Positions 5,123 through 43,484 of a stretch of DNA of 64,000 nt are shown here, one piece after another. The notes below the pieces were generated by a model. That model had not been told where the DNA came from. It saw nothing but the letters and a program-made list of their open reading frames with translations, and did not search any database. Each line of letters begins with the position of its first letter. Positions within the stretch are counted from its first letter, which is position 1. The position numbers and the translations under genes are program-made. Source of the DNA: a candidate division Zixibacteria bacterium RBG_16_53_22 (lineage in GTDB: Bacteria; Zixibacteria; MSB-5A5; UBA10806); the NCBI GenBank assembly GCA_001775395.1, contig MEWP01000130.1, positions 74,921 through 138,920 of the forward strand. The letters run 5' to 3'.

Positions 5123-5308
5123 CTTAATGATATCTTTGGGGTGATTAATTCAGAGGAAAGGAATTGCGTATCGCGATTGGCTAACAGGTTTTTGTAGAAG
5201 AGCGGAATAACTTAAGAATGCATTTTTGCGCTACATTGACCTGATAGCTTTTGTGCTATTTCCGGGCGAATTTACGCCTGGAAATTGAATCGTCGATATG
5301 GAGGCCCG

Positions 5309-8300
5309 ATGAAATACTCCCCTGGATTAATGAAGCTCGCTTTTTCAATCCTGATTACCGGCTTCATAGTTTATGCCCGAAAGACCCAGGCTGAGTCGAT
5401 TTTTGACACCGACATTGAAATAGTTGATTCCGACCGGACGGGGATAACGCTGCGTTACGTTGCCCCCGAGGCTTCATTTTCCCCCATCGGACCGGCCGAA
5501 AAGAATTTCTACCAGATTTCGATATCACGCACCGCCCAAAATGGCAGGGATGGTCAGGTCGAGATACCGATGAAAATTGTGCCTCTTGCCATGCCGCCCG
5601 GCGCCATGCCCAGAATTCAGATCATCGAGGCCGATTACCAGAATGCTCCTTTTAGGAAAGTAACCCCGTATTTTTCTCGCCCGACTCTCGAGGAGTTCAG
5701 CCAGGCGTTTAACACAGCCGCCGCGGAAACACCATCGATACCCCAGTCCAATCCATATGTCGTTAGTATCGATGAAATTCGCGGCTTGACGATAGCGCGC
5801 CTGGCAATTCCAACAGCGCAATATTCGTTAACACCGCCTTCTCTGGCGCTTCTGAAACGGATTACCATGAGGATCAATTTCGTTGGAGGATCGCAGGCCC
5901 TGGCGGCGGGATACAGGAATCCGGGCCAGGTTTTCGATCGCATCTTGCAAAGATCGGTCGCTAACTATGATCAGGGCCGCGACTGGTTCGTGGCCAGGCC
6001 GGCATCGACGCTCACGGCAACCAGCCCCTTCGATTCGGCAACAACCTGGATCAGGATTGAGCTTACGACCGAGGGAATCTATTCATTTGGCTGGACTCAT
6101 TTCAACCTGGCGGGCATCAATCCAGCCGATGTCGACCCATCGAGGATCAGGATGTTCTATGGCGGCGGCCGCGAGCTCCCCACGCGCAACTCTCAACCCA
6201 GACCGACTCTTCGCGAAATCCCGGTGAAGGTTGTCGGAGGCAATGACGGTTCATTCGACGGCAGCGACCAGGTCATCTTCTACGCCGATGCCGCCGACAG
6301 TTGGGAATACTCCGATCAATTTCAAAGATATATGGCCTACAAGAATCATTATGCCGACAGAAACGTTTATTGGCTTACAATCGACGGCAATTTCGGGTCC
6401 CCGCCCAGAAGGCTGTCGACAATCAATGGTTCGCCTGACGGACCCTTTGACGCATCCTATAACTGGTATACGGCCTCGACCCACAGGGAGCAGGACCGGG
6501 ACTTTCAATATCTCACTGTAGGCACCAGCTACTATAATTGGTTCTGGGGTTACAGCCGGGATTTTTCGACCTCGGTTCAGCTCTACGATAATATCGAGGG
6601 ACAGCCGGCCACGGTGGTTGTCAGGAATGAATCCGGCTCCCCTAATCTCTCGGTAAACGGCAATCCGGCGGAATTGGTATCGCGGAACCAGACATATTCG
6701 ACTTTCCGCACGAGCGACCTGGGCGACGGGGCCAACAATTTCGTGATTTCCTCTCTATCGAATTTTTATTTCGATTATATCGATGTCGAGTATCCGCGCT
6801 GGTTGAAAGTACTGGATGGCAGCCTGCTCTTTTCGCAGCCCGATACTTTCGGCAATATCAGGTACTCCCTTACCGACGTGGCCGCGCAGTATACCCTGCT
6901 CGATATCACCGATAAAATGAATCCGGTGGAGATAGTCGGCGCCGCTCTCTCGGGAACCAATTTGACATTCGATGATACCGCCTCGGCGCAATCGCATAAG
7001 AGATTCTTCATATCGAGCAATGCGCGTTTCAAGTCACCGACGGCGATCGAGAACTACGATCGGGACGATCTGCGGAATATCGACGACCCCGAGAACCACG
7101 CCGACGAATTGATTATCACCTACGACGGATTCCACGACCAGGCGGTAAGGTTCGCCCAGCATCGCGAACAGACATATGGCTTGAGGACCCGCGTTATCGA
7201 CGTCTCGGAAATATTCAACCAATTTTCTTTCGGGCCGCTCGATCCGACCGCGATCCGCGATTTCCTGAAATATGCCTACGAGAACTGGCAGGAGCCGGCC
7301 CCGACTTTCGCATTGCTTATCGGCGATGGTAATTATGATTTCAGGAATAATCTCGGCCACAACCTGCGAAATTACGTGCCGCCCTGGGAAAATACCGGAT
7401 TCATGACCGATGAATATTTCATCTATTTCGGCAATGAGTATTTCCTCGATGCCGATCGAGACTCATTGCCCGATATGATCATCGGCCGGCTTAACGCCAG
7501 ATCGGCGCAGGAGGTCGACGACTTTATCACCAAGACCACAGATTACGACTTGAATCCCGATCTCGGCCCCTGGCGGCATAGAGTACTTGTCGTGGCCGAT
7601 GACAACCTGCATCCCCCCAGCAACTCCAACGAAACTCTCCATACTGGACAGGCCGAGATCCTGACAAACAGGCATATACCGGGAAGATTCGAAACGAATA
7701 AGATTTACCTCATTGATTATCTAATGCAGGCGGGAGGCGAAAAGCCCGAGGCCCGAGAGGCCATTGTCAGCGCTTTCAACCAGGGCGCTCTGATTATCAA
7801 CTGGATCGGCCACGGCAGCGCCAATCTCTGGGCCGATGAAAGGGTTTTCCGGCGTATCCAGGATATCCCCCGCCTGACAAATGGCAAGAAGTTGCCTCTG
7901 GTCTTTACAGCCTCGTGCTCGATAGGCAAATTCGATTTCCCGGCCAATGAATGCATGGCCGAGGAATTCATACGCAACAGCGCCAATGGCACCATTTCCG
8001 TAATCTCGGCCACCCGTGATGTTTATGCCCTGCCCAATGCCGAGTTGAACAATCAACTGTTCGACCAACTCCTGGTCTTCGATTCGTCCGGCGTCGGCGA
8101 GTCGCTCTATATGGCCAAGCTGCTCAGAAGCAATTACGGGCCGACCGATAACAACGATATGCTCTACATGGTTTTCGGCGATCCCGCCCAGCTTTTGCAG
8201 TATCCCAAGTTCGATGTCAGCCTGACCCTGGCGCCGGACTCGCTCATGGCACTAACAGTCGATAGCGTCTCCGGGGAAATCGTCGATGATTTCGGAAACG

Positions 8301-9298
8301 TTCGCAACGATTTCACCGGCAATGTCTGGGTGACTGTCAAGGACGGCTCGTCGGTGCGATCGGTAACCCTGCGCAACAGGCTCAATGTCGCATTGCCGCC
8401 GCCCAACACGATTACATATGTTGCAGAAGGCGCCACCATTTTTATCGGCCCCGCCGACGTGCGCAACGGCAGATTCACCAGCCGATTCTTCATCCCCAAG
8501 GATATCTCCTACGGCAGCCGCGGCGCCAAAATCTACGCCTACGCGGAAAACGGGTCGTTCGATGCCCTGGGAGTGCGCGATTCACTTCTGGTTTCAGGAT
8601 CGCTTCCGGCTCTGCGCGACAGCATCGGCCCGACAATCGAGCTCCTGGCCGACGGCCGCCCGTTCGTGGCCGGTGTGACAATTGTGCCCTCGATTTTCGA
8701 CCTGGGCGCAATTATCCGCGACGATCATGGGGTGAATATCACCGGCCAGCTTGGCCACAGCATCGTGGCCAGTATCGATGACGGCGAGGTTTTTGAGGGG
8801 GATGTGACCAGCTATTTCAGGTTTAATCAGGGAGACTATCAGGGGGGCAGGTTGGAGTTCCGCATGCCGGAACTGCCTCTGGGCGAGCATGATATCACCC
8901 TGAAGGCCTGGGATAATTTCAACAACTCCACCATGATCTTGCGGCGGATCGAGGTCGTGGCTAATGGCGAGCTGGCGATTTCCGATGTCATGAACTATCC
9001 CAATCCGGTTAGGAAAGGTGACAACTCGACAGCATTCCAGTACTGCCTCAATAACGATGTCGATAAGGTCACCATAAAGATATTTACCGAGGCCGGGCGT
9101 AAAATCAAGATTTTCGAACTGACATCAACCGACCAAACCCAGATGGGATGCGAACAAGTGCCCTGGAACCTGCTCGACGCCGATACCGATCCCCTGGCCA
9201 ACGGCATCTACTTATACCAGGTGTCCGCGGAGCGGCACAATGCAGGCGGCGGCAAGGAACAGGCGGAGCAGACCGGAAAACTGGTGATATTGCGGTAA
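5309..9298 (+). CDS. Peptidase C25 (gingipain-like) family cysteine protease with T9SS type-A C-terminal sorting domain; ORF track start 5285 is TTG, ATG at 5309 preceded by GGAGG
   Basis: C25 catalytic-domain-like stretches ('ITYDGFHDQAVRFAQHREQTYGLRTRVIDVSEIFNQF', 'NWIGHGSANLWADERVF', 'LPLVFTASCSIGKFD'); signal peptide 'MKLAFSILITGFIVYA'; C-terminal roughly 90 aa 'SDVMNYPNPVRKGDNSTAFQYCL...GIYLYQVSAE...GKLVILR' matches Por_Secre_tail pattern. Confidence 0.85.
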   Translation: MKYSPGLMKLAFSILITGFIVYARKTQAESIFDTDIEIVDSDRTGITLRYVAPEASFSPIGPAEKNFYQISISRTAQNGRDGQVEIPMKIVPLAMPPGAMPRIQIIEADYQNAPFRKVTPYFSRPTLEEFSQAFNTAAAETPSIPQSNPYVVSIDEIRGLTIARLAIPTAQYSLTPPSLALLKRITMRINFVGGSQALAAGYRNPGQVFDRILQRSVANYDQGRDWFVARPASTLTATSPFDSATTWIRIELTTEGIYSFGWTHFNLAGINPADVDPSRIRMFYGGGRELPTRNSQPRPTLREIPVKVVGGNDGSFDGSDQVIFYADAADSWEYSDQFQRYMAYKNHYADRNVYWLTIDGNFGSPPRRLSTINGSPDGPFDASYNWYTASTHREQDRDFQYLTVGTSYYNWFWGYSRDFSTSVQLYDNIEGQPATVVVRNESGSPNLSVNGNPAELVSRNQTYSTFRTSDLGDGANNFVISSLSNFYFDYIDVEYPRWLKVLDGSLLFSQPDTFGNIRYSLTDVAAQYTLLDITDKMNPVEIVGAALSGTNLTFDDTASAQSHKRFFISSNARFKSPTAIENYDRDDLRNIDDPENHADELIITYDGFHDQAVRFAQHREQTYGLRTRVIDVSEIFNQFSFGPLDPTAIRDFLKYAYENWQEPAPTFALLIGDGNYDFRNNLGHNLRNYVPPWENTGFMTDEYFIYFGNEYFLDADRDSLPDMIIGRLNARSAQEVDDFITKTTDYDLNPDLGPWRHRVLVVADDNLHPPSNSNETLHTGQAEILTNRHIPGRFETNKIYLIDYLMQAGGEKPEAREAIVSAFNQGALIINWIGHGSANLWADERVFRRIQDIPRLTNGKKLPLVFTASCSIGKFDFPANECMAEEFIRNSANGTISVISATRDVYALPNAELNNQLFDQLLVFDSSGVGESLYMAKLLRSNYGPTDNNDMLYMVFGDPAQLLQYPKFDVSLTLAPDSLMALTVDSVSGEIVDDFGNVRNDFTGNVWVTVKDGSSVRSVTLRNRLNVALPPPNTITYVAEGATIFIGPADVRNGRFTSRFFIPKDISYGSRGAKIYAYAENGSFDALGVRDSLLVSGSLPALRDSIGPTIELLADGRPFVAGVTIVPSIFDLGAIIRDDHGVNITGQLGHSIVASIDDGEVFEGDVTSYFRFNQGDYQGGRLEFRMPELPLGEHDITLKAWDNFNNSTMILRRIEVVANGELAISDVMNYPNPVRKGDNSTAFQYCLNNDVDKVTIKIFTEAGRKIKIFELTSTDQTQMGCEQVPWNLLDADTDPLANGIYLYQVSAERHNAGGGKEQAEQTGKLVILR

Positions 9299-9354
9299 GC
9301 CTGACGATGATACCATCGACCTATTATTTGATTTCAATATCTGGAGGAACGAAA

Positions 9355-11934
9355 ATGAAGTTGTGCAAACTCGCAGTTGTCCTGACTCTGCTATTGGCCG
9401 GGACAGCATCAGCCCAGGTTGGACGGACAGGCGTGCCGTTTCTATTAATCGCGCCCGGTGCGCGCGCGGCCGGCATGGGCGAGGCCTTCATAGCCATCTC
9501 GGATGATGCCACGGCGGTTCACTGGAATCCTGCCGGGTTGGGCAAATATCCCCTGACTGGCTCCTGGTTGAATTTCAGGGCCGGCGACAATGACACCATA
9601 CAGTCGGTCGTGCTTGTTAAAAATAACCTGCCGGAAAATAACTATCGGCAGTACGACATGTGGGGCCTGGTTAATAGCAGGCTGGCCAAATGGGATGGCC
9701 GAAAATGGGTCATGGGTATCAAGCAGGAACTGAAAAGCGGGCAATCGATGCAGAACCTGGTCACGCGATACACCGGCCTGGACGAAGAGCTGGCCGAGCC
9801 ATATGTCAATAAGCTGGCCAGAGAAAACAATCAAATCGCGCCTGAATCGATTGATTCCCTCAGGGCGATGATAACGCCGGTTCTTCCGGACGAGTACCTT
9901 TATAAGGATGAGATCCAGTTCGGTTTCGACAAACTCCTCAAAGCCTACTATGAGCTTCGAATAGACATGAATGGCTTCAACCAGATCCGCGCCGACGTCT
10001 ACGAGGTGGTTGGAAACCAGGCGCCATCGGAAGACAAGCTCGATAAGATAGCTTTCGGATTCGACCGGGGCATAACCGCCAAGGGCGACAGGAACGTCTG
10101 GATGCCATTTGATCTGGCTCTGCCGGACACTATCACATGCATCGGCTCCGACGATGAAAATGTCTATATCGGCACCGCCGGCGCCCTGTTTCGCCTCGAA
10201 CCCGACAAGCTCAAGTGGTCGATGTTTACGGCATCCGGCGACTCACTGCCATCGGGGAAAATCACGGCTCTGCATAAATTTGGCAAAAAGTCGGCGATGC
10301 TGGTCGGGACCGAAACGGGCCTGGCTAAATTCACCGGCCGTAACTTTATCCCGTTTCCCCCGGATGCTAATGCGCCCAGGGGCCATATTAGCGCCATTTC
10401 CGTCGAGAACGATCGCAACGCCTGGGTGGCGGGTGACGACCAGCTTTTTCACTTCGACGGCTTTAAATGGAGCAACTTTCACGATGAGGAATTCACGATC
10501 GGCGAATCACTCCCAAAATCGGCGGAGCGATTCTATGGCGAGCTTGGCGCCGCCGACCTCGACAATATTCTGGCCGAAATCAGAAATGCCAATCCCGCAC
10601 TTGGCGATACGGTAGCTCCCGGTCAGACCGTAAAGTTCCCTTATAGCCTCGGCTACAGGGGCAACATCACCACCCTCGGCATCGACGACAGGAAACGCCT
10701 CTGGATCGGGACCACCAATGGGGTAGCCAATTTCGATGGCGAGAAATTCCGCTTGTTCGGTTACAGGCTCTATGAGGCCCCGCAGCCAATCACAGTTCAG
10801 GAAATTGCGTCGGGCTTCATTCCCGACAGAAACCCCGAGAAGATCGAGAAGCTGTCAACGCTGATCAGGGAATTCAATCGCCTTGATTCGGACCAGTTAG
10901 AGACCGGCAAGAAGATTCTCGTATATGCCAACGCTCTCGGCTCGGAAGTCAATGCTATCAGCCCGGTCTCCGGCCGTAAGACTATCGTGGCCACCGACCA
11001 GGCCCTGGTCATGTATAACAACGGCAAATGGAATCGCATGCCGGTCGCCGGCACACGCGGTTCCGACGTGGCCGGGATACAAGCGCAGTCCGGCGAACTC
11101 TGGGTCAATGGCAGGAACAAGGTGTCAGTTTATTCGGCGCCGAAAAAGCAGATAACTTTCATGCACTCCAATTACCTGGTCGATCTGGCCGATGACATTT
11201 ATTACGAGTTCTTTTCGTTCGTATATCCAACCAGCGATTGGGGCACGTTCGGTTTGGGAGTAACTTTCCTTTCGTTGGGCAACCAGATCAGAACCGACGA
11301 AATCGGCAGGGTACTTGGAAATTTCTACACCTACGAAATGGCCCTGACCCTTTCCTACGGCACCAAATTGATGAGTAACCTCTACGGCGGCGTCTCGCTT
11401 AAATATATCAATTCGCACTTATCGGATGCCGGCGCCGGCAAGGAACAAGGCAGCGGCTCCGGCTACTCCGTGGCGGTCGACGGCGGCGTGCTGTACGATA
11501 TGACGCGCCGGCTGACACTTGCCGCGACCGTTACAAATATAGGTCCTGATATATCGTACATCGACGCTGACCAGGCAGATCCTCTGCCTCGGAAATTCTC
11601 TTTCGGTTACTCTTTCAAGCTGATCGATTCGCCCTACAACAAGCTTTCGTTCGTGGGTGAGGCCACCAAACTGCTGGTCGACCTGAACGACGATTTCACA
11701 ACCGAAATCGAGGAAATTATACCACACGTGGGCATGGAATACTGGTATTCCAATTTGGCGGGTCTGAGAGCCGGGTACGTCTACGATGACAAGGGCGTTC
11801 AGAAATATATGACTCTGGGAGCTTCTCTGCAGTACAGCAGCTACAGGTTCGATTTCGCCTATATTCCTCCAACCAACGAGGATTACAACAGATTGGGGCG
11901 AACCATCAGATTCTCGATGAACGTGGGGTTTTAG
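9355..11934 (+). CDS. PorV/PorQ-like (UPF0164-type) outer-membrane beta-barrel protein with a large internal beta-propeller-like (two-component-regulator-propeller/Y_Y_Y-like repeats) insertion
   Basis: ATG 9355 with GGAGGA SD; signal peptide 'MKLCKLAVVLTLLLAGTASAQ'; N-terminal signature 'GVPFLLIAPGARAAGMGEAFIAISDDATAVHWNPAGLG'; C-terminal barrel ending '...RFSMNVGF'; middle region with repeated 'NVWMPFD..IGT..GLFR', 'NAWVAGDDQLFHFDGFKW' propeller-blade-like motifs; sits between two T9SS-CTD cargo genes. Confidence 0.65.
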   Translation: MKLCKLAVVLTLLLAGTASAQVGRTGVPFLLIAPGARAAGMGEAFIAISDDATAVHWNPAGLGKYPLTGSWLNFRAGDNDTIQSVVLVKNNLPENNYRQYDMWGLVNSRLAKWDGRKWVMGIKQELKSGQSMQNLVTRYTGLDEELAEPYVNKLARENNQIAPESIDSLRAMITPVLPDEYLYKDEIQFGFDKLLKAYYELRIDMNGFNQIRADVYEVVGNQAPSEDKLDKIAFGFDRGITAKGDRNVWMPFDLALPDTITCIGSDDENVYIGTAGALFRLEPDKLKWSMFTASGDSLPSGKITALHKFGKKSAMLVGTETGLAKFTGRNFIPFPPDANAPRGHISAISVENDRNAWVAGDDQLFHFDGFKWSNFHDEEFTIGESLPKSAERFYGELGAADLDNILAEIRNANPALGDTVAPGQTVKFPYSLGYRGNITTLGIDDRKRLWIGTTNGVANFDGEKFRLFGYRLYEAPQPITVQEIASGFIPDRNPEKIEKLSTLIREFNRLDSDQLETGKKILVYANALGSEVNAISPVSGRKTIVATDQALVMYNNGKWNRMPVAGTRGSDVAGIQAQSGELWVNGRNKVSVYSAPKKQITFMHSNYLVDLADDIYYEFFSFVYPTSDWGTFGLGVTFLSLGNQIRTDEIGRVLGNFYTYEMALTLSYGTKLMSNLYGGVSLKYINSHLSDAGAGKEQGSGSGYSVAVDGGVLYDMTRRLTLAATVTNIGPDISYIDADQADPLPRKFSFGYSFKLIDSPYNKLSFVGEATKLLVDLNDDFTTEIEEIIPHVGMEYWYSNLAGLRAGYVYDDKGVQKYMTLGASLQYSSYRFDFAYIPPTNEDYNRLGRTIRFSMNVGF

Positions 11935-11937
11935 TAA

Positions 11938-14900
11938 GTGCTTGGACGAAGCGCTCTCATTCTTTGGGCAGCGACCGCTTCTTTTCTGATACAACCACAG
12001 GTATCGGCTGACGGGAAGATCATCAAGCCGATTGGCCGTGAGACGATTGAGCCCCCGGCCCAAATCGGCGAATTCGTATCCGATGTCTCCCGGAGAAACC
12101 TGCTCGGCCTCGAAAGACCGACTCCCTTCTCGCTTCCAACCTCCAAGCGTGGCGTATCGCTGGCCGAGGCTGTCCAGGAGGATACGATCCGTGTTCTCGC
12201 GCTCAAGGTTGAATTCCTGACTGAGACTCCGGACAACGGCAAGACCACCGGCAACGGCAATTTCGACCTGCGCACATATGAGGAATTTCAAGCTCAAGAG
12301 GGGCATTATATCGACCCCGCGCCGCATAACTCCGCCTATTTCAATTCGCACCTCGATGCGCTAAATCGCTATTGGCAATCGGTCTCGGATGGTAAACTCA
12401 GCCTCAACTGGGACATCTATCCTCAAATCGAGGACGAGGCTTTCAGGCTTCCGGTATCGATGTCATACTATGGCTCCGAAGGCCCATGGGCCGATTCGTC
12501 TGTCGGTGACAAACTCGGCCACTTTTTCATCGATGCCATCCATTTCGCCGATTCTGCCGCGCCGGAAATAAATTTCGCCGATTTCCAGGCTATCATCGTC
12601 TTTCACGCCGGCTCGGACCAGCAAAACAATATCGCTTTCATCGATGATACTCCGGATGATTTCTGGACCGGCTTTCTGCGCCTGGCCGAACCGCTGGAAG
12701 TCGATGGCGGCTCCGCGTCAGTAATTGATGGCACCATCATGCCGGAGACGGTCAATCAGGATAATCGCCTTAACGCCCTCAACGCCGTCATGGCACATGA
12801 ATTCGGTCATCAGTTGGGATTGGTCGACCTCTACCAGACGCGCAATTTCCTGACACAGATAGGCGATTTCTCGCTCATGGACAACAACGGCATGTCGGTC
12901 GGGGTGATAATCGATGATAACTTCCCGTCGGTGGGCGGCACGATCCCGGTCTACCCCGACGCCTGGTCGCGAGCCTACTTGGGATTCGATATCCCCCGCG
13001 AGGTAACGCTGGGCGATAATGAGCCGGTCTTTGCGGCGGCGCTGCAGCATTCCGATAACGAAATCATCAAGGTGCCGATTACGGAATTCGAATATTTCCT
13101 GGTCGAGAACAGACAGATCGATGCCGATACTCTCGAACCTGGCTTCCCATTCGACAACGTCCTGATCGGCGACCCGCAGACGACTGTTATCCTGGGGCCG
13201 GGCTATGCCTATTTCCAGGGGAATGACACGATTCTGGTTACCGACGCCGAATACGACCGCCTTCTGCCCGGCAATGGCATGCTCATCTTCCATGTCGACG
13301 AATCCGTGGCATATATGAATGAGATGCCCGAGTATGGCCCGAATAATTTTTGGAATAACACGCTTCAGTGGCAGCCGAGCCGGCGTTTCGTGTCGCTGGT
13401 CGAGGCCGATGGTATCATCGATTTTGGAGGCAACTACTATACCGGATTCGGCAGCCAGGCCGATATGTTCAGGCGATTCTATAACTCGCAATTTACGCCC
13501 TTTACAAGTCCTTCGTCACATTCGAATCTCGGCGCCGATACCCATATCTCGATCACAGATATCTCAAGTTCCGATACTATGATGACATCCGATATCAGAA
13601 TCGACTGGTTTATGCCAGGCTGGCCCCAGATGAGTATCCCGGGAAGCGCCAGCGATCCGGTGGTGGCTGATTTGGATGGCGATGACAGCCTCGAGGTCAT
13701 CATGGCCTCCGGTAATCAGCTTCTCATATGGCGTCATGACGGCAGCAAATTCATACCCAACTCCGATTCGATTGGAATTTTAAGATTCGACAGCAGCATC
13801 GCAATCTACCCGCTGGCCGTGGCCGCGGAGTGCGATACAGATATTGTCGGCAGACCGGTGATTTTCCAAGCGGATTCCCCCGCCCCTGACGTCGACGCGC
13901 CCGAGATAGCGGTATCAACAATATCGGGAAGGTTATATGTTTTTGGCATAAATGACGGAAATGGGGATGGCAGAATCGACCCCCTTCCGCTGACCCCCAT
14001 CGAGAATGTGACAACATCGATGGCAGGGCCGATCGCGGCAAATTTCTGGAGCCCACTGGCCGATCAACTAATCACAATAGACAATGAGGGAAGGGTCCAT
14101 CAAATCAGTTGGGGCTATTCCCTCGCTATCCCCATAGACTCGGTGGTTTACAGTTTCGGGGGGCCCGCAGTTCCGGCCTGCGCGTATACCACTGGCGAGA
14201 TGGACCATCTGCAGGTATTAAGGTTAATGCTCGGTGGCCCACCGAGGTTAGTGACGCTCGAGGCCGCAAGCGGAAGCCTTGAATTTAGTGAGACGTCGGT
14301 GCAGGCGGTCCACGCCACTGCCCTCGTCGCGGGCGACTTGTTGCGAGCCGGTTCCGGTGAGCAGGTCGTAGCCACGGATATTGATGAAATCACCCTCGTG
14401 GGCGAAGACGGTCTTGTTATCTGGAGGCGGCAAATCGACAGCCTCAGCGGCCATCCTGCGTTGGGCGATATCAACTCCGACGGCTATCCCGAGATCGTGG
14501 TCGTCGGCGATTCGAAGATTCTTGCCTTCAATCGCGAGGGGGCTTTGCTCTCCGATTTCCCAATAAACCTGCACCTTTATGATTTGAACGGCCTGATCGA
14601 GGCTTCCCCCGTCCTGGCTGATGTCGACTCCGACGGCAATCCCGATATAATTGTGGGACTTCCCGGCGGCGCGGTCTACGCTTTCAACTACCGGGGTGAC
14701 AGGTTAGCAGGATTCCCGCTGCCAACCTCGTTTGGAATAACCAGAGCCGCCGCTGTTGGAGACTTGAATAATGATGGCCAGACCGACCTGCTTGCCGTTG
14801 AAAGCGTCGGCTTCGTGAAAGCCTGGGACATTGGAACAGCGTTTAACTCCCAAAACGCTCCCTGGCCAATGGCCGGCGGCGATGCCAAGAATAGCGGCTA

Positions 14901-15222
14901 CCTGGCGGCGCAATTTCAGAAACCGGTTATGACCACCGACGAGCAACTTCCCGAAAACTCGGTATTCTGTTACCCCAATCCGGCGAAAAATTCGACTACG
15001 ATCAGGTATTACCTGAATAGCGATTCCCAGGTAAGTATCGATATTTATGATTACCTTGGCGAGCGCATACACAAAGCAAATCTCGTGGGTCAGGCCCACG
15101 CCGATAATGAATATGTCTGGAACTGCTCGGATGCGGCATCGGGTGTCTACTATTGCCATATCCAGGCCACGAATGCCGCACGCGAGGTTTGGCGGATGAT
15201 TAAAATTGCGGTCGTGAATTAA
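11938..15222 (+). CDS. M6-family (immune inhibitor A-like) zinc metalloprotease with FG-GAP/VCBS repeats and T9SS type-A C-terminal sorting domain (GTG start)
   Basis: 'MAHEFGHQLGLVDLYQT' matches the M6 HExxHxLGLPDLY zinc-binding signature; FG-GAP-like repeats 'GDINSDGYPEIVVVG', 'ADVDSDGNPDIIVG', 'GDLNNDGQTDLLAV'; C-terminal 'ENSVFCYPNPAKNSTTIRYYL...GVYYCHIQATNAA...IAVVN' CTD. Confidence 0.85.
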   Translation: MLGRSALILWAATASFLIQPQVSADGKIIKPIGRETIEPPAQIGEFVSDVSRRNLLGLERPTPFSLPTSKRGVSLAEAVQEDTIRVLALKVEFLTETPDNGKTTGNGNFDLRTYEEFQAQEGHYIDPAPHNSAYFNSHLDALNRYWQSVSDGKLSLNWDIYPQIEDEAFRLPVSMSYYGSEGPWADSSVGDKLGHFFIDAIHFADSAAPEINFADFQAIIVFHAGSDQQNNIAFIDDTPDDFWTGFLRLAEPLEVDGGSASVIDGTIMPETVNQDNRLNALNAVMAHEFGHQLGLVDLYQTRNFLTQIGDFSLMDNNGMSVGVIIDDNFPSVGGTIPVYPDAWSRAYLGFDIPREVTLGDNEPVFAAALQHSDNEIIKVPITEFEYFLVENRQIDADTLEPGFPFDNVLIGDPQTTVILGPGYAYFQGNDTILVTDAEYDRLLPGNGMLIFHVDESVAYMNEMPEYGPNNFWNNTLQWQPSRRFVSLVEADGIIDFGGNYYTGFGSQADMFRRFYNSQFTPFTSPSSHSNLGADTHISITDISSSDTMMTSDIRIDWFMPGWPQMSIPGSASDPVVADLDGDDSLEVIMASGNQLLIWRHDGSKFIPNSDSIGILRFDSSIAIYPLAVAAECDTDIVGRPVIFQADSPAPDVDAPEIAVSTISGRLYVFGINDGNGDGRIDPLPLTPIENVTTSMAGPIAANFWSPLADQLITIDNEGRVHQISWGYSLAIPIDSVVYSFGGPAVPACAYTTGEMDHLQVLRLMLGGPPRLVTLEAASGSLEFSETSVQAVHATALVAGDLLRAGSGEQVVATDIDEITLVGEDGLVIWRRQIDSLSGHPALGDINSDGYPEIVVVGDSKILAFNREGALLSDFPINLHLYDLNGLIEASPVLADVDSDGNPDIIVGLPGGAVYAFNYRGDRLAGFPLPTSFGITRAAAVGDLNNDGQTDLLAVESVGFVKAWDIGTAFNSQNAPWPMAGGDAKNSGYLAAQFQKPVMTTDEQLPENSVFCYPNPAKNSTTIRYYLNSDSQVSIDIYDYLGERIHKANLVGQAHADNEYVWNCSDAASGVYYCHIQATNAAREVWRMIKIAVVN

Positions 15223-15267
15223 CTTGTCCGCCTAAGGCGGGTAGGCATACCTTTTTCAGGAGGAAAT

Positions 15268-16119
15268 ATGAAGTCAGTATTGAAAGGCTTAATCGCGACG
15301 GCGGTGGTGTTTTCGGCCGGGACGGCTTCGGCCTCCGGCCTGACACGCACCACCACCATCGATGAGGCCTTCCTTGCAAATTCGATCACCATGCAGAACT
15401 TCTTCGCCAAGAAGCTTGAGGTCCGCCAGGGGGAGGACGATTTGCGCGAGGATATCTACGAATTCCATGCCAAATCGCCGCTGAAGGCATTCGCCCTATC
15501 GCTGGCGATTCCCGGGGCCGGTCAATTCTACAACGGCTCGAAAATCAAGGCCGGCACTTTCTTGGCCGCCGATGCCCTCCTGTGGACCGGATATCTCATC
15601 TACCACGGCAAGGGGAATGATCAGGAAAAGAAGTATAGGAAGTTTGCCGATGATAATTATACCGCGTCCAGATATTTCGACTGGTTCGAGACTCTGGGTG
15701 ATTCGGTCAGACAGGTGTTCTCGCATCAAATCTATCCCGATCCAAACGACCCCGAAGGAGTTGTCAGGAATCACGAGTATTATGAAAATATCGGTAAATA
15801 TGATCAATTTCAGCCCGGTTGGAACGACTACGATTCGCTCGGATGGCCGCCCCCGCCTCTGCCCGGCGAGAATAGAGAATATCAGGCTACACCCTATCGT
15901 ATGCAATACCTCGACATGCGCCGGCAGGCCAACGACTACTTTTCCAACGCCTCGACCATGGCCATGATTTCTATTGCCAATCATCTGATTTCGGCTTTCG
16001 ACGCGGCCATCGGGGCCAAGAAATACAACCGCGGCACCAGGCAATATTCTCTGAGGCTCAAATCGAAAAATATCGATGGCAAGGTGGCGCCGTTTATCGT
16101 GGCGGAGGTTAAATTCTAA
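15268..16119 (+). CDS. Secreted protein of unknown function, paralog A (signal peptide; conserved 'L(A/S)xxxPGAGQ[FY]Y' motif; C-terminal '...VAEVKF' suggestive of OM beta-barrel)
   Basis: 283 aa; signal peptide 'MKSVLKGLIATAVVFSAGTASA'; shares 'LPGAGQYY/IPGAGQFY' and 'YYE..(Y)DN/QF' motifs with next gene; ends with aromatic Phe. Confidence 0.55.
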   Translation: MKSVLKGLIATAVVFSAGTASASGLTRTTTIDEAFLANSITMQNFFAKKLEVRQGEDDLREDIYEFHAKSPLKAFALSLAIPGAGQFYNGSKIKAGTFLAADALLWTGYLIYHGKGNDQEKKYRKFADDNYTASRYFDWFETLGDSVRQVFSHQIYPDPNDPEGVVRNHEYYENIGKYDQFQPGWNDYDSLGWPPPPLPGENREYQATPYRMQYLDMRRQANDYFSNASTMAMISIANHLISAFDAAIGAKKYNRGTRQYSLRLKSKNIDGKVAPFIVAEVKF

Positions 16120-16124
16120 CTCTT

Positions 16125-16877
16125 ATGTCAAAATCCATTCCTGTCATAATGCTGTTGTTCCTCCTTGGCTTGTCCCCATTGGCGGGCGCCCAGAGCATTA
16201 CGCAAATGATGGCTTCCTCTGGCAACCTCCTCGATGACGACGATCTCAACTTGCCATCCTATGCCAGCCCCGGCCAGGAGCGGCCTCATGAGAAATCCAG
16301 ATTTCTGGCGTTGGGCCTGTCGTTCGTCCTTCCGGGCGCCGGGCAGTACTATACCGAGAATAAGTCGAAGACGATCATATTCGGCGGTGCCGAAGCGATG
16401 ATATGGGGTGGATTTTTTGGCCTGCGCCAGTACGGCGGCTGGAAGAAGGACGATTATCGGGCCTGGGCCGCATTCCACGCCGGGGCCGATGTCAATGACA
16501 AGCCCGATATCTATTACGAGAAACTGACCTACTACGACAACCTCAACGAATATAATCAACTGGCTCCGCTCTATGATGGAGATGAGGCCACCCTCTTCCC
16601 CGCCACCCGCGACTATTATTGGAACTGGGATTCCGATGGCAGCCGCGATCATTATCGCAGCTTGCGCAACCAGAGCAAGAACGCCTACCGAAGATCGCTA
16701 TTCCTGCTGGGCGCGGCCCTTATCAATCGTGTCCTGGCGGGTATCGACGCCTACCGGGCGGCAAGCTATTACGAGGAAGATTCTGAGTTCGGCCTTGCAG
16801 GATGGAATGCCTACTGCCAGACGAATGGACCGTTATGGGACCACGAGGTCAGAATAGGCATTGCCAGGAAATTCTAA
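16125..16877 (+). CDS. Secreted protein of unknown function, paralog B of 15268-16119
   Basis: 250 aa; signal peptide; 'LGLSFVLPGAGQYYTENKSK'; ends '...RIGIARKF'; 5-nt spacing from paralog A. Confidence 0.55.
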   Translation: MSKSIPVIMLLFLLGLSPLAGAQSITQMMASSGNLLDDDDLNLPSYASPGQERPHEKSRFLALGLSFVLPGAGQYYTENKSKTIIFGGAEAMIWGGFFGLRQYGGWKKDDYRAWAAFHAGADVNDKPDIYYEKLTYYDNLNEYNQLAPLYDGDEATLFPATRDYYWNWDSDGSRDHYRSLRNQSKNAYRRSLFLLGAALINRVLAGIDAYRAASYYEEDSEFGLAGWNAYCQTNGPLWDHEVRIGIARKF

Positions 16878-17987
16878 ATGCCATTGCGATTTGGAAAAAT
16901 AACGTCCGATAAGACTGCCATTAGTCACCTCGGAAACAAGGTTGAGAAATTTGATGTAGGGACGTATTGCAATGCGCTCCAACGCTATATTTGGAAACAT
17001 ATTTGTCGTGGCAAACGAATAATCTCAATTTCGGGTTTGACTGCTTTATCGTCATTTTCGCTGGCGCTTCTTTTTTCATCATGCGCCTCGGGCGGCAGGC
17101 AATCATCTCCTCCCGCTGTTCCGGTCGCGGCTCGATCGATATTGAACGTTCATCAGGTTGGTTCCATCGGGCCGGAGATCGGCGCTCTCGGTAAATTGAT
17201 CGAACCGGCCAGTCTTCTGGTCGACAATCTCGGTGACATATTCATTGCCGACAGGGCCATCAATGCCATCTACAAGCTATCTGCTGATTTGACACCCCTG
17301 AAGCGAGAGGGCGGCCTGGGTGGATTTGGCGGCGGCTTCAACCGGCCCCTGGGTATGGCCTGCGATGCGGCGCTGAATTTATACATCGCCGATGGCGGCA
17401 ACCGCCGAATACAAACCCTGGATCGCAATCTTCGTTTCGTCAAATCGACAGATTCCTACGAGGACCGGGACGGTCAGGTGGTCGAATTCAATTTCCCATC
17501 CGATATCGCTATCGACAACGAGGGGAATATCTGGGTGGCCGACGAGGATAAGGTCCTCAAACTCGACCCATTCTACAAGCTCATCTTCGAGGCCTCCGAC
17601 AAAGGAGCCGGATATTTCATACTCGGACGAGTCTCCTCCATCGAGATTTCGATGGCCGGCAATGTGGCAATTGGCGACGCCGGCAATAGGCGCATCGTGA
17701 TAATGTCGACCTACGGCAACTTCATCGCCGATATTCCCACCGGTTCAGCCTCTGCGGTAACCTGGGATGACAAGGATAATATCTGGGCGATCGAATCGGA
17801 CAGGAACAGGATTTCGTGCTACAATATGACCGGCGACTTGCTGTATACATTCGCCGATATGGGCGGCTCGCGCCCGATCTGGATCGCGTTTGGCCGCGAC
17901 GGTGAACTTCTGGTCCTCGATAGCAATCAGCGCCGCCTCAAAACCTACGAGATAATCCGCGGCGCCGAGGCGCCGGATAAAAAGTAA
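16878..17987 (+). CDS. NHL-repeat beta-propeller lipoprotein (true start probably downstream of track start; lipobox 'LLFSSC')
   Basis: NHL-like repeats 'LYIADGGNRRIQTLD', 'GNIWVADEDKVLKLD', 'NVAIGDAGNRRIVIM', 'DNIWAIESDRNRI'; signal/lipobox 'LALLFSSCASG'. Confidence 0.7.
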   Translation: MPLRFGKITSDKTAISHLGNKVEKFDVGTYCNALQRYIWKHICRGKRIISISGLTALSSFSLALLFSSCASGGRQSSPPAVPVAARSILNVHQVGSIGPEIGALGKLIEPASLLVDNLGDIFIADRAINAIYKLSADLTPLKREGGLGGFGGGFNRPLGMACDAALNLYIADGGNRRIQTLDRNLRFVKSTDSYEDRDGQVVEFNFPSDIAIDNEGNIWVADEDKVLKLDPFYKLIFEASDKGAGYFILGRVSSIEISMAGNVAIGDAGNRRIVIMSTYGNFIADIPTGSASAVTWDDKDNIWAIESDRNRISCYNMTGDLLYTFADMGGSRPIWIAFGRDGELLVLDSNQRRLKTYEIIRGAEAPDKK

Positions 17988-18169
17988 GATGCTTATTAAT
18001 GATGCGGTGGCTTTTCAGGTGGTGTCCGGTCTTCTCTTCGAGCCTGCTGTCGACCTTGAGGGCCGTCAGGCCCGATGGGATGGCCCTTCAGCGCCTCAAC
18101 GACAGAACTGATATTTCAGATCCCTCGTCTCAGCCGGGCCCTCCGCGGAAGGCGAATTCATGGCGGCGC

Positions 18170-21100
18170 ATGATCTATCTCCCCTGTCTTATTCTCCTCG
18201 TCACCCTTCAATCATACGCTCAGGCGCCTGATACCAGCATTACAATCCATGGTGGCGGGACGCGCGGCCCATACCAGCTTGGATTCCACAATCTGGTCAC
18301 CGGCTCGATCTCGCTTTTAAGAAACGGCGCGGTCGTTGAGTCAAATGCCTATACCGTGCAGACCGCCGATGGTATCATCAATCTGAATGAGCCGCTCGGC
18401 CTGAATGACTCAATCCTCGTCAGATTTCAATACATTCCGTTGAATCTAAGATCGCAATATTCGATTCATGCCCTCTCGTCCGAAAACAAGATTCCCGCTA
18501 TCGAGCCGGCCGAGCCCGGATCGTTCCGAGGTTTCGGCTCCGATCTCAAAGTCACCGGCAGCAAGGGATTTTCAGTGCAGACCGATGACGGCACTGCCGG
18601 CGGCCTTTCCCAATCGCTGAATCTGTCGATTTCCGGGGAGCTGGCGCCTGGCCTGAGAACCTCCGCCAATGTCTCGGACAAGTCAAATGCTGTCACCGGG
18701 GCTACGCGCCGCCTGAATGAGCTTGATAAAATATATGTTGTGGCTGAATCGGACCATTTCAAAGGCATTTTCGGGGATTTCGATATCGAACAACGACGCG
18801 ATCCCTTGCTTGGCTATCAAAGAAAACTAACCGGCTTGAATGTGCTATATTCGAAACACGGCAACACTATCACCGGCGCGGCGGCGTTCTTTCCCGGCGA
18901 ATTTAGAGCGATCACGATCAACGGACGCGATGGCCGATTGGGACCATATTATTTAACCGATATAGGCGGCCGCCAGGCAGCGTTGGTCCTTCCCGGCTCA
19001 GAGCGAGTTTATATCGATGGCGCGCTCCAGAGTCGTGGCCCGCAAAACGACTATGAGATCGATTACGAGACCGGCACATTCCAGTTTTCGCCATCGAAAG
19101 TGATCCGCGACGAAACCAGGATCACGATCGACTACGAGGTCGCCAGGGAGGAATACAGCCGTGGTTTCTACACTGCCTCGGGCGACGGCAGCCCCGTACG
19201 GGGACTGAGATTCTTTTCGAGTCTTATCCAGGAGGGTGACAACAGAAACTCCCCGAAGAGTTTCGAACTGACTCCGGAGGCGCGGCAAATTCTCGAGCAG
19301 GCCGGGTCTGACAGGTTGCGGGCGGCCCGCAGCGGAGTACAATTTGTCGGGCCCGGCGCCGGAGATTATGATCTCGATTCCACAGTAACGGTCCATTACG
19401 TATACGCCGGGGTCAACCAGGGAAGCTATGATGTCGCATTCTCATTCATCGGCCAGCGGCTTGGGTCATACAGAGCGCTGGGCGGCGGAATTTTTGAATA
19501 TGCCGGCCAGGGTTTGGCAGACTACGAGCCGGTGATCCTCATCCCAATTCCGGAGACAAGGCGCTACGGCTCGGCCGGCGCGGATTGGCGCTCGCCCGAC
19601 AGCGCAATCGCGATCGGAGGAGAGATGGCCGGCTCCCTTTATGACCGCAATACTCTCTCCAGCCACGATAGCCGTCTTAACGATTTAACATTTCTTGGTT
19701 CCGGCGCCTACAGGCGAAACCTGCTCGGAGGATTTATCGGAATCAAGGCTCTTGGGCGGGCGATCGGCAATAACGCCATCTTCCCGGGACGGATCGACGA
19801 CGTCGAACGCTTCCGGAACTACGACCTCGATAGCCAGGCCTCGCCAAACGGCGAACGCGTGCGGGAAATAGAGCTAACCGGCGGGCTTACTAACGACCGG
19901 CAAATAATGATTGAATTGGGTCATCTCACTAAACCGGGCATCACCAGCCGTGGCCGTCAGGCCGCCAACGCCGGTTGGAGGCTCTTCTCGCCTTTCGATA
20001 TCGTCTCCTCGGTGGAACGCACGCGTGGCGACAGGACGTGGTGGAAATCCATGAATGCCATCAGGGCCGCATTCGAATTTGCTCAGCCCTCATTAGGCTT
20101 GAATTTTGAACGTCGCGACGGTGTTGCGGGATTCAAATACTACGAGTACATAGCACGCATTCCGGCGAATTATGCGCGCGATATATCCGGAGCAACCGAG
20201 GTAACTGTCCGCGATGAGAAATTCCTCGATACCGGCTGGCGAGACAAGTTTATGTCTGGCGCGCTTCAGCAGAGAGTCACTTTCCTGATTGCCGGGACTG
20301 GCTTTTCGGGGGACGCCGCTCTCTCATATTATCGAAAAGACTATAAGGATTTTGCCGGGACCGATACCGAGCAAAAAACCGGCTGGACACGTCTCAGTTA
20401 TTCCGATCCCTCGGGCCGGGGCAGCCTGACTATCGGTGAGCGGCTGGGATCATCCAATGAAAGGCTACAGGCGAAAAATTATGTATTTATCGGCGACGGC
20501 CGGGGCGAGTACAGGCTCGAGGACGGCGAATACATCCGCGACCCTCAGGGCGATTATACGCTGATCATCGAGGAACTCGGCGAGGGCGCCAGGATATCTG
20601 AGATCGGGACCGAGATCGATGCCAGTGTCTCGCCCCTCTTGCTGCTCAACAATACCCCAGCAATTGAACAGAAGGCGGGGCGGCTCAGTGTCGAGGCTAA
20701 CCTTGATTACTCCCTGAGGAAATCGTCCGACCGTCTGATTGCCAGGGATTTTATGCCCTGGAAATTCACAGGCCTCGAAAATGTCGCTTTCCAAATTGGC
20801 GAGCTGAAAATGAGGGCATATTACTATCCTGCGATGCGCGACCACCGCATAAAATATAATTTCTCGCGAGCTTTTGAAAATGGAAGCCAATTTGCCAATG
20901 AGCAGAATGACAACATATCGAGGACCGACGAACTTTCATGGGCATTCCCGGCCGGGAAGAAGATCGATCTCATTATCACCGGCCTTTTGGCGCAAACCAG
21001 GCGCTCGATCAATACACTGAAATACACTGTCGACAGGAAGAGCCTCGGCGCTCTGGCGAATTACCATTTCGCGCGGCAGTGGACACTCTCGGCCGGTCCG

Positions 21101-21427
21101 TCTTTCGAGAGGTCCCGGCAAAGCGATATCGGCCTGCGCGCCGACATGCCGGCTTTAGAATTCGGACTGGCGCGCGACCTCGAGAAATCGGGGCGAATCT
21201 CCACCCGCCTCATCTATACGCGTCTTAACGCCAATCCGCTTGATTCCTACGTGCCGTTCCAGGTTGCCCGAGGCAGAGGCAATGGCGACAATTTTGAGGC
21301 TATTATTTCGGCCCGGATGCCGGTCACCAAAAACGGCCGCTTTGATCTCTCCTACAGGCACGAGAGTTTCGCTCACCGCCCGCAGACAAATAACCTTCGC
21401 CTGGAATTCACGGTGCTGTTCCTATGA
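18170..21427 (+). CDS. Large (about 1085 aa mature) secreted/outer-membrane protein of unknown function, C-terminal beta-strand signature '...LRLEFTVLFL'; possible TamB/AsmA-like partner of downstream Omp85 gene (speculative). Track start 17999; signal peptide begins at ATG 18170
   Basis: Signal peptide 'MIYLPCLILLVTLQSYAQA'; long beta-rich sequence, terminal aromatic; stop overlaps start of Omp85 gene (ATGA at 21424-21427). Confidence 0.55.
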   Translation: MIYLPCLILLVTLQSYAQAPDTSITIHGGGTRGPYQLGFHNLVTGSISLLRNGAVVESNAYTVQTADGIINLNEPLGLNDSILVRFQYIPLNLRSQYSIHALSSENKIPAIEPAEPGSFRGFGSDLKVTGSKGFSVQTDDGTAGGLSQSLNLSISGELAPGLRTSANVSDKSNAVTGATRRLNELDKIYVVAESDHFKGIFGDFDIEQRRDPLLGYQRKLTGLNVLYSKHGNTITGAAAFFPGEFRAITINGRDGRLGPYYLTDIGGRQAALVLPGSERVYIDGALQSRGPQNDYEIDYETGTFQFSPSKVIRDETRITIDYEVAREEYSRGFYTASGDGSPVRGLRFFSSLIQEGDNRNSPKSFELTPEARQILEQAGSDRLRAARSGVQFVGPGAGDYDLDSTVTVHYVYAGVNQGSYDVAFSFIGQRLGSYRALGGGIFEYAGQGLADYEPVILIPIPETRRYGSAGADWRSPDSAIAIGGEMAGSLYDRNTLSSHDSRLNDLTFLGSGAYRRNLLGGFIGIKALGRAIGNNAIFPGRIDDVERFRNYDLDSQASPNGERVREIELTGGLTNDRQIMIELGHLTKPGITSRGRQAANAGWRLFSPFDIVSSVERTRGDRTWWKSMNAIRAAFEFAQPSLGLNFERRDGVAGFKYYEYIARIPANYARDISGATEVTVRDEKFLDTGWRDKFMSGALQQRVTFLIAGTGFSGDAALSYYRKDYKDFAGTDTEQKTGWTRLSYSDPSGRGSLTIGERLGSSNERLQAKNYVFIGDGRGEYRLEDGEYIRDPQGDYTLIIEELGEGARISEIGTEIDASVSPLLLLNNTPAIEQKAGRLSVEANLDYSLRKSSDRLIARDFMPWKFTGLENVAFQIGELKMRAYYYPAMRDHRIKYNFSRAFENGSQFANEQNDNISRTDELSWAFPAGKKIDLIITGLLAQTRRSINTLKYTVDRKSLGALANYHFARQWTLSAGPSFERSRQSDIGLRADMPALEFGLARDLEKSGRISTRLIYTRLNANPLDSYVPFQVARGRGNGDNFEAIISARMPVTKNGRFDLSYRHESFAHRPQTNNLRLEFTVLFL

Positions 21428-24285: not shown

Positions 24286-25272
<987 letters not shown>

Positions 25273-25382
25273 TAGCGAGTAGCCAATAGCCAGCAGCGAA
25301 AAATGCAGGGGCGCAGCATGCTGCGCCCGATATTCTGTAAAATATAAACAGATGTGTCAGGTCTGAAGACCCGACACCACCG

Positions 25383-26288
25383 TTGAACCAAGCAAGGTAT
25401 TGCAATATGCTCCCACGGGAGATACTAAAAAAAGTACGACGTATCGAAATCAGAACATCTCGCATGGTAAACGAGGTGTTCTCGGGTGAATACCATTCCA
25501 TCTTCAAGGGGCTGGGGATGGAGTTCTCCGAGGTGCGCGAGTATCAGCCGGGCGATGATATCCGTAATATCGACTGGAATGTCACGGCCCGATATGGACA
25601 TCCGTTCCTGAAGGTCTACCGCGAGGAGCGCGAGCTGACAGTCATGATAATGGTTGACCTTTCGGCCTCGCAGCGGTTCGGCACCGGGGCACGCTTCAAA
25701 ACCGAGGCTGCTGCCGAGATCGCCGCCATCCTGTCGCTGGCCGCGATCAAGAATAACGATAAGGTGGGCCTGCTGATATATACCGATCGGATCGAGAAAT
25801 ATATCCCTCCCAAGAAAGGGCGAAACCATGTCCTGCGGCTGATTCGCGAGATCATCTATTTTAAGCCCGAGGGGCGCGGGACCAATACCGCCGCGGCGCT
25901 GGAATATCTGTTGGGTGTCGTAAAGAAGAGATGCGTCCTGTTCCTGATATCGGACTTTATCGATCAGGATTACGAGAAGCCTCTTTCCCTGGCGGCGCGC
26001 AAGCACGACCTGATCGCTCTCAGGCTCAGTGACCCCCTGGAGATCAAATTCCCAAAGGCCGGCCTGATACGCTTTTTCGACCTGGAAACGGGGCAGGAAC
26101 GATTGATCGACACCTCGAGCGCGGAATTCAAGCGGCAGTTTGTGGCGAGGATCCAGGTGCGCAATATGGCGTTCGATAAAATGACCAAGAAGATGGCGAT
26201 TGACCGGGTCTTCATCCCCGCCGGCGGCGATTACTCAGCGCCCCTGTTCAGGTTTTTCGAAATGAGGGCCAAGAGGATAAGGCATTAG
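25383..26288 (+). CDS. DUF58 family protein (vWA-like, MoxR partner)
   Basis: 'NIDWNVTARYGHPFLKVYREERELTVMIMVDLSASQRFG' DUF58 signature; follows moxR. Confidence 0.9.
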   Translation: MNQARYCNMLPREILKKVRRIEIRTSRMVNEVFSGEYHSIFKGLGMEFSEVREYQPGDDIRNIDWNVTARYGHPFLKVYREERELTVMIMVDLSASQRFGTGARFKTEAAAEIAAILSLAAIKNNDKVGLLIYTDRIEKYIPPKKGRNHVLRLIREIIYFKPEGRGTNTAAALEYLLGVVKKRCVLFLISDFIDQDYEKPLSLAARKHDLIALRLSDPLEIKFPKAGLIRFFDLETGQERLIDTSSAEFKRQFVARIQVRNMAFDKMTKKMAIDRVFIPAGGDYSAPLFRFFEMRAKRIRH

Positions 26289-26291
26289 GAA

Positions 26292-40500: not shown

Positions 40501-40699
40501 GCGCGCTCCGATGGCGCAGGCGGTGATCGGTGGACTGATGTCATCAACGGCCCTGACTCTCATCATCGTGCCGATTGTTTATACCCTGCTCGATGACCTC
40601 GTGGCTTTCGTAACGGGCAAGAAAAGAAGGGCTAAACGGGCTCTGAAATACGGCCCCTCTGCAGGAACCAACGATAGGTCGCCTGCGGTTGAAGATTGA
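37544..40699 (+). CDS. RND family efflux transporter (AcrB/HAE1-like), 12 TM, two large periplasmic loops
   Basis: 1051 aa; N-terminus '[50 protein letters not shown]'; conserved '[11 protein letters not shown]' in TM4. Confidence 0.95.
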
Positions 40700-43451: not shown

Positions 43452-43484
43452 AGCGGCGGCCGGAATGAATCAGGGCTTTTCTCA

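Follow-up and report, generated by a model that had tools for sequence, protein, structure and literature searches.

A gene at positions 9355–11934 (+) of a 64-kb stretch of DNA from Zixibacteria bacterium RBG_16_53_22 (the window, meaning the whole stretch analysed) encodes an 859-amino-acid protein that is the zixibacterial orthologue of PorV, the 14-stranded outer-membrane carrier of FadL type in the T9SS (type IX secretion system). Between its N-terminal tail and its barrel the protein holds an insert of about 530 amino acids (aa), a beta-propeller of the Reg_prop type in which two LysM-derived units and a helical bundle are embedded. Our confidence in the PorV identity, together with the order of tail, insert and barrel, is high. 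PorV is currently viewed as a small, freely diffusing carrier that travels from the SprA translocon to the sortase, a shuttle model established in Porphyromonas gingivalis. A phylum-wide PorV with a large periplasmic domain of the peptidoglycan-binding type suggests that the carrier step can be organised otherwise, as a fixed and wall-coupled one. The gene and its parts are as follows.

9355..11934, +, long-form porV, 859 aa (family scores, AlphaFold2 model, ribosome-binding site)
9355..9417, +, signal peptide, residues 1–21, MKLCKLAVVLTLLLAGTASAQ (hydrophobic core followed by ASAQ, read from the sequence by eye)
9418..9552, +, FadL/PorV-type N-terminal tail, residues 22–66 (aligns to residues 28–64 of Flavobacterium johnsoniae PorV)
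9553..11142, +, inserted module, predicted periplasmic, residues 67–596, Reg_prop-type beta-propeller with embedded sub-domains (AlphaFold2, Foldseek)
9739..10083, +, helical bundle after blade 1, residues ~129–243 (seven helices in the AlphaFold2 model)
10477..10650, +, LysM-derived module A, residues ~375–432, between two blades (fold pattern, Pfam matches of homologues)
10762..10932, +, LysM-derived module B, residues ~470–526, between two blades, degenerate here (fold pattern, Pfam matches of homologues)
11143..11934, +, PorV barrel of 14 strands, residues 597–859 with C-terminal Phe, plus the stop codon (AlphaFold2, Foldseek)

Identification of the gene product as PorV

The 859-aa product is 100% identical to the hypothetical protein A2W25_07955 of RBG_16_53_22. 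A longer open reading frame (ORF) starting at 9148 was rejected as the gene, and 9355 was taken as the true start because a GGAGGA ribosome-binding site is present at 9343–9348, 7 nucleotides (nt) 5′ of the ATG at 9355, because the N-terminus then has the form of a typical signal peptide and because homologues align from residue 1 of the 9355 product. In public annotation the homologues of this long PorV are called 'PorV/PorQ family protein' or 'hypothetical'.

Membership of the PorV family, proposed in a preliminary description of this DNA, was borne out by profile searches with Pfam PF19572 (PorV; 85.7 bits, cut-off 27) and NCBIfam NF033709 (PorV/PorQ family, PorV_fam; 242.7 bits, cut-off 90). 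The signature quoted there from the N-terminus (residues 34–63) and the C-terminal ending RFSMNVGF are both present. The NCBIfam equivalog for PorV proper, NF033710, scored 181.9 bits, below its cut-off of 250, its match falling into three separate stretches because the insert splits it; this score was nevertheless well over those of the PorQ (83.6 bits) and PorV2 (42.2 bits) models of NCBIfam. Among PDB sequences the only strong match found by phmmer was F. johnsoniae PorV (6h3i_F, E = 4e-24), again in two parts, with query residues 11–61 aligned to PorV 10–64 and query residues 599–859 to PorV 73–395. Deletion of residues 67–596 in silico turned this into a single colinear alignment to the same protein, with E = 5e-30 instead of 4e-24. 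The split match and the colinear alignment after deletion delimit an insert of ~530 aa that replaces only a few residues of canonical PorV. The gene adjacency typical of PorV is also present, the 3′ end of porU lying 56 nt upstream of porV.

The long PorV thus has in common with PorV of F. johnsoniae (6H3I/8GL6) and P. gingivalis the 14-stranded FadL-type barrel, the tail motif, the loop-1 motif, the C-terminal Phe and the neighbouring porU. It differs in its length of 859 aa, compared with ~390–400 aa for canonical PorV, in the ~530-aa propeller/LysM module that canonical PorV lacks, and in belonging to Zixibacteria rather than Bacteroidota.

Membrane topology

An AlphaFold2 model was built from 87 homologues, with a mean predicted local distance difference test score (pLDDT) of 84.4 and a predicted template modelling score of 0.78. 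The model contained a barrel fold, and its top Foldseek matches were PorV chains (8gl6_F, E = 1e-15; 6h3i_F, E = 5e-13), with FadL, TodX and TbuX lower in the ranking. The barrel has 14 strands, and every one of them falls within residues 599–858, C-terminal to the insert. Their connections alternate between long loops (9, 5, 13, 17, 15, 4 and 14 aa) and short turns (4, 4, 4, 3, 3 and 2 aa).

The N-terminal part, in which the preliminary description had seen a contribution to the barrel, holds the sequence GARAAGMGEAF...HWNPAGLG, the most conserved stretch of the long PorV. Residues 1–66 form a low-confidence coil in the model. By alignment and model the motif is a FadL-type N-terminal tail and not a barrel strand; tails of this kind in the FadL family thread the barrel pore (PMC12611786).

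The orientation of the barrel can be read from a cargo-contacting loop. In F. johnsoniae, PorV Asn87, situated in an extracellular loop, binds the C-terminal domain (CTD) of the cargo within the SprA pore, and a conserved CTD lysine bonds to the main chain of PorV at Asn87 and Phe115 (PMC10994853). The residue aligned with Asn87 is D613, which belongs to the loop connecting strands 1 and 2, and around it a motif YLxDLAxDI is common to both proteins (YLvDLAdDI here, YLtDLAnDI in F. johnsoniae PorV). This suggests that the loop-1 motif contacting type A CTDs is kept in the long PorV, for which CTD binding is predicted. Since the equivalent of Asn87 sits in the strand 1–2 loop, strand 1 should run from the periplasm to the outside, and the insert, joined to the end at which strand 1 starts, should lie in the periplasm. 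The linkers are short, ~4 residues to strand 1 and ~4 residues to the tail, which would put the insert directly under the barrel mouth. On this combination of alignment, model and the F. johnsoniae cryo-EM structure, the insert is very probably on the periplasmic side, at the junction of tail and strand 1, and not on the cell surface.

This topology bears on the arrangement first proposed for the protein, a barrel formed from both termini with a propeller exposed at the surface, where PorU receives cargo, that would select the flanking proteases or external sugars. A Reg_prop propeller does sit in a PorV barrel between genes for CTD proteins, but every strand comes after the insert, strand 1 is joined to the insert at its periplasmic end and the supposed upstream cargo is PorU itself, so that we consider this arrangement highly improbable.

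The inserted module

Residues 68–594 were modelled at ~90 pLDDT and form a propeller of ~7 blades, as counted from the DSSP strand pattern. With the window protein alone, phmmer found the sensor propeller of BT4663 (E = 5e-7). The Pfam Reg_prop model (PF07494, cut-off 20.4) scored 17.1 bits in the window protein, under the cut-off, and up to 54 bits in homologues. After PorV, Foldseek returned the periplasmic sensor propellers BT4673/BT4663 (E = 1e-10) and PorZ (E = 2e-8). A large propeller insert with Reg_prop blades had been noted in the preliminary description and is present; its size is ~530 rather than the ~450 aa then estimated, and no match to the Y_Y_Y domain, also suggested at the time, was seen in the window protein.

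The sensor domains of BT4663/BT4673, from hybrid two-component systems of Bacteroides, and PorZ are the closest relatives of the insert blades in sequence and structure. The sensors share the periplasmic side with the insert, and they bind glycans. Both the sensors and PorZ differ from the insert in having paired propellers and a Y_Y_Y domain, in the partner to which these are attached, a kinase or, for PorZ, a CTD, in lacking LysM inserts and in not being part of a barrel.

The kinship with PorZ raises the question of a fusion resembling PorQ/PorZ, in which a PorZ-type propeller would give PorU a glycolipid anchor like anionic lipopolysaccharide (A-LPS). PorZ (5m11) is a structural neighbour at the Foldseek E-value given above, one homologue has a weak match to PorZ_N_b_propeller (E = 0.014) and the gene adjoins porU. 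PorZ, however, is a surface protein of two propellers and a CTD, whereas the insert is a single propeller without a CTD and with periplasmic topology, and the barrel scores far better as PorV than as PorQ (181.9 against 83.6 bits); such a fusion appears very unlikely.

Two units embedded between blades show the beta-alpha-alpha-beta order of LysM, judged by the succession of secondary structure alone. DSSP assigned to module A a strand at 375–379, helices at 386–400 and 402–412 and a strand at 425–429, and to module B a strand at 470–474, helices at 481–488 and 494–508 and a strand at 520–524. In full-length homologues the Pfam LysM model (PF01476, cut-off 20.9) matched with 42.6, 31.7 and 24.5 bits, the first of these at the position of module A (homologue P0060) and the second at that of module B (homologue P0085); 12 of 51 isolated homologous segments gave a LysM match at E ≤ 0.01. 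A joint family profile of both modules matched the PDB LysM proteins LytE (E = 5e-9) and 4uz2 (E = 5e-7). The hallmark Asn of LysM is nearly invariant (N413 in module A, N508 in module B), A485 is invariant in module B, and a motif of the G[DE][ST]L type occurs in module A of 68 of the 87 members, as GESL in the window protein. At the level of the family, these comparisons support homology of modules A and B to LysM.

The LysM-derived modules suggest, by their homology, a ligand such as peptidoglycan or another glycan rather than specific cargo; the G[DE][ST]L-type motifs are suggestive of LysM-like binding to GlcNAc-containing glycans (peptidoglycan or chitin). Sugar binding by the propeller, which had been raised in the preliminary description, is possible, but would take place within the periplasm. 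In inverse autotransporters of the intimin/invasin type, too, an outer-membrane barrel is paired with a periplasmic, peptidoglycan-binding LysM domain. In these the LysM domain is N-terminal and not inserted, and their 12-strand barrel family and adhesin export are unrelated to the long PorV.

The helical bundle found no significant PDB relative and no LysM match with a profile of residues 116–246. A third LysM unit had been considered at residues 121–160, where a GxSL...NN motif is found in 34 of 87 members, and was dropped on the outcome of that profile search.

Distribution and conservation

Over 100 clusters of proteins show the complete architecture; their length is 856–863 aa in most cases, and longer variants of 920–1057 aa add helical segments to the module. 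All clusters with this architecture that carry an organism name are labelled Zixibacteria. Eighty related genome loci, at 31–65% identity and nearly all with a Zixibacteria label, share both the architecture and the gene order porU–porV–M6. In the alignment of 87 members, down to 34% identity, the insert has an occupancy of ~1.0 and a nearly constant length. The architecture is fixed across the phylum. A search of the insert alone against 1.84 billion representative proteins gave 53 clusters at E < 1e-30; the complete module occurred only in proteins of 850–1050 aa, that is, only in PorV, and weaker matches covered generic blades only. It begins at residues ~58–265, mostly at ~65–72 and as late as ~265 in the longer variants.

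An artefact, in the form of a chimeric ORF created by misassembly or a fusion of two genes, would be suggested by the unusual length only. The architecture recurs, at a constant length and in a constant gene context, in so many clusters and at 80 independent loci, and AlphaFold2 is confident across both junctions; this leaves an artefact a practically negligible probability, and a chimeric ORF or misassembly was ruled out on that recurrence.

A number of genome records, many in all, in which this long PorV and its synteny recur (among them loci L005, L006, L012, L015 and L017) bear the title 'uncultured Ignavibacteria'. By identity these records interleave with those labelled Zixibacteria, and their titles are probably placeholder labels, although the long PorV may be more widely distributed.

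Searches of the full-text literature in which Zixibacteria was paired with PorV or with type IX secretion (T9SS) returned no paper, no published account of this architecture was found, and the joint mention of PorV, LysM and propeller led to a single paper, on an unrelated topic (iron deficiency in Bacteroidetes). The present results extend detailed analysis of T9SS components to an uncultured phylum of the Fibrobacteres–Chlorobi–Bacteroidetes (FCB) group, the Zixibacteria.

Genes flanking porV

The two genes flanking porV are on the same strand.

5285..9298, +, porU, C25-family T9SS sortase of 1337 aa whose C-terminus carries a CTD-like domain (NF033707, Peptidase_C25)
11938..15222, +, M6-like metalloprotease, FG-GAP repeats, type A T9SS CTD (Por_Secre_tail, M6 catalytic domain)

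Both had been taken for cargo proteases. Their assignment to the C25 and M6 families and the T9SS CTDs of both hold, but the upstream protein is not an ordinary cargo: it matches the NCBIfam T9SS_sortase model NF033707 with 696.9 bits (cut-off 420) over residues 252–1336 and Pfam Peptidase_C25 with E = 1.5e-86, and is the sortase PorU, the known partner of PorV. About 250 extra N-terminal residues precede the region covered by the PorU model, with a weak match to Propeptide_C25.

The M6 gene starts 3 nt past the porV stop codon. Its product has a Por_Secre_tail domain (39.4 bits, cut-off 27), and its best NCBIfam match is NF052323, 'T9SS-dependent M6-like inactivated metalloprotease', at 357 bits, below the cut-off of 600. 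The window protein and 74 of 74 related loci retain an intact HEFGHQLGLVD motif (HExxHxxGxxD), so that the protein looks catalytically competent. Assignment of the three genes to the PorU2/PorV2/M6i set of NCBIfam was rejected: PorU scores as canonical, the PorV2 model matches only the N-terminal tail, and the M6 protein falls below the cut-off and has an intact active site.

Synteny in related genomes, which the preliminary description had proposed to check, is conserved. Counting those of the 80 loci with room for the neighbouring gene, porU is upstream of the long porV in 78/78 and the M6 gene downstream in 77/77.

Proposed role of the long PorV

Retention of the loop-1 motif and the adjacency of porU suggest that the barrel keeps the roles of cargo carrier and of holding PorU. 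We favour the explanation that the protein is a PorV orthologue with its cargo loop, anchored via its periplasmic module, and consider the chances of this explanation as a whole evenly balanced. The barrel would still take cargo with type A CTDs, for example the co-transcribed M6 protease, and would hold PorU at the cell surface; the propeller/LysM module in the periplasm would tie the barrel to peptidoglycan and/or to parts of the T9SS in the periplasm. In this way translocon, carrier and sortase would make up a fixed, wall-anchored station, with PorV no longer a free shuttle. Anchoring to the wall or in the periplasm is the most likely function of the insert but a tentative assignment, to which we give somewhat less than an even chance.

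An analogy exists with PorE, a periplasmic lipoprotein with TPR, 5-bladed propeller, CRD and OmpA_C domains. PorE binds a peptidoglycan fragment, and a role of the PorP–PorE complex in fastening the T9SS to the wall has been proposed (PMC7192894; PMC7463736). Like the long PorV, the PorP–PorE complex of Bacteroidota brings together a T9SS outer-membrane barrel, a periplasmic propeller and a domain of the peptidoglycan-binding type; unlike it, the complex consists of two proteins, with OmpA_C rather than LysM and a propeller of another family. No homology of the insert to PorE was detected, and the likeness is one of analogy only; the long PorV has no match to PorE-type TPR, CRD or OmpA_C domains and is not a lipoprotein. 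By this analogy, a single polypeptide would combine the roles that in Bacteroidota belong to a FadL-like barrel and to PorE, the periplasmic propeller/OmpA_C lipoprotein.

The same location under the barrel would also suit a periplasmic cargo receptor or holding platform, whose propeller would bind CTD cargo or a folded passenger and feed it to the translocon entrance, the LysM units being structural only. PorV in F. johnsoniae adjoins the periplasmic entrance of the translocon (PMC10994853), the related propellers of BT4663 and BT4673 bind ligands in the periplasm, and porV is translationally coupled, across the 3-nt gap, to a gene for CTD cargo. However, no T9SS step is known that involves PorV on the periplasmic side, and the surface of the insert is poorly conserved overall, whereas CTDs are a conserved class of ligand; we regard a receptor of this kind as unlikely, if credible.

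In F. johnsoniae the periplasmic base of PorV is contacted by SkpA of the periplasmic 'dish' of the extended translocon (PMC10994853), and the propeller and TPR domains of PorE have been proposed as scaffolds (PMC7192894). The insert could accordingly be pictured as an adaptor, built into PorV, on which periplasmic machinery of the T9SS docks, for example a GldK/GldN-type ring or a SprE/PorW/Skp-type 'dish', and which replaces linker proteins, with LysM as a relic. The variants of 920–1057 aa, with their extra helical segments, are as expected of an evolving interaction platform, but no other periplasmic T9SS component is recognisable in the operon or the 64-kb window. A docking adaptor is in our view a doubtful alternative, about on a par with the cargo receptor.

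Several observations weigh against the wall-anchored PorV that we favour. Pfam LysM has no significant match in the window protein's own LysM segments. Only 21 of 87 members keep the GDTL-type motif of module B, and the window protein, which reads PQPITVQEIA there, has lost it; this loss together with the lack of Pfam significance implies that the binding of glycans may, in this clade, be weakened or even lost. Among the parts of the long PorV conservation is lowest in the insert, with a mean top-residue frequency in the 87-member alignment of 0.48, compared with 0.86 for the tail and 0.68 for the barrel. Periplasmic placement and blade count derive from strand order and homology and not from model coordinates, and, as confidence in the modelled N-terminal tail is low, the tail may or may not plug the barrel. 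A wall-tethered PorV also conflicts with the shuttle model of P. gingivalis.

The long PorV offers a natural single-polypeptide model for the placing of outer-membrane T9SS parts relative to the wall and the periplasmic machinery.

Downstream genes and other features of the window

Downstream of the M6 gene the same strand carries a possible terminator and further genes for envelope proteins.

15223..15245, +, terminator-like hairpin directly past the M6 stop codon (10-pair stem and T-rich tail; consensus scan, pattern match only)
15268–16119 and 16125–16877, +, two tandem DUF5683 paralogues (Pfam)
16878–17987, +, NHL-repeat propeller protein (Pfam; lipobox-like LLFSSC; annotated ORF start probably too early)
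17999/18170–21427, +, giant outer-membrane barrel (structure model; likely true start 18170)
21424–23094, +, Omp85/BamA-like protein of 556 aa, with POTRA domains (79.5 bits against the BamA model, less than its cut-off)

The hairpin is a possible end of a porU–porV–M6 transcript. The two DUF5683 proteins both start with a signal peptide, contain a PGAGQ[FY]Y motif and end in Phe, and the pair lies downstream of M6 in nearly all related loci. The DUF5683 pair, the NHL-repeat gene and the giant barrel continue the cluster in most of the 80 loci, and the Omp85-family gene, whose start overlaps the giant-barrel stop by 4 nt, is appended in the window and in several related loci. These downstream genes (15268..23094) may act together with PorV.

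The giant barrel (~1085 aa) has no family match and was modelled with ~40 strands at pLDDT 82.8. Its top four Foldseek matches were SprA chains (E = 9e-12 to 2e-9) with TM-scores of only 0.22–0.26; its sequence profile gave no PDB match, and a homologue in Fluviicola (Bacteroidota) is not near porU or porV. A compact translocon is one possibility for this protein, a large barrel of unrelated kind another. The Omp85-family protein may be a dedicated insertase.

Taken together, these genes allow the conjecture that Zixibacteria run a streamlined station from one cluster, in which PorU, a wall-anchored PorV and a protease with a CTD would be joined by the giant barrel, SprA-like but half-size, as the translocon and by an Omp85 protein dedicated to the station; the propeller/LysM module of PorV would replace separate linker and anchor proteins and PorV would act as a fixed gate adaptor rather than a mobile shuttle. 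We rate this conjecture as quite improbable. If true, it would represent a different, possibly ancestral, solution to the carrier step of the T9SS. Scans of the window revealed no further recognisable T9SS genes.

Elsewhere in the window, genes for a MoxR-type ATPase, DUF58, BatA, BatB and BatD at 24286–31790 (+) constitute a Bat (aerotolerance-type) operon, and at 40696–44300 (+) BshC, GT4 glycosyltransferase and PIG-L deacetylase genes stand next to one another and look like a cluster for bacillithiol biosynthesis.

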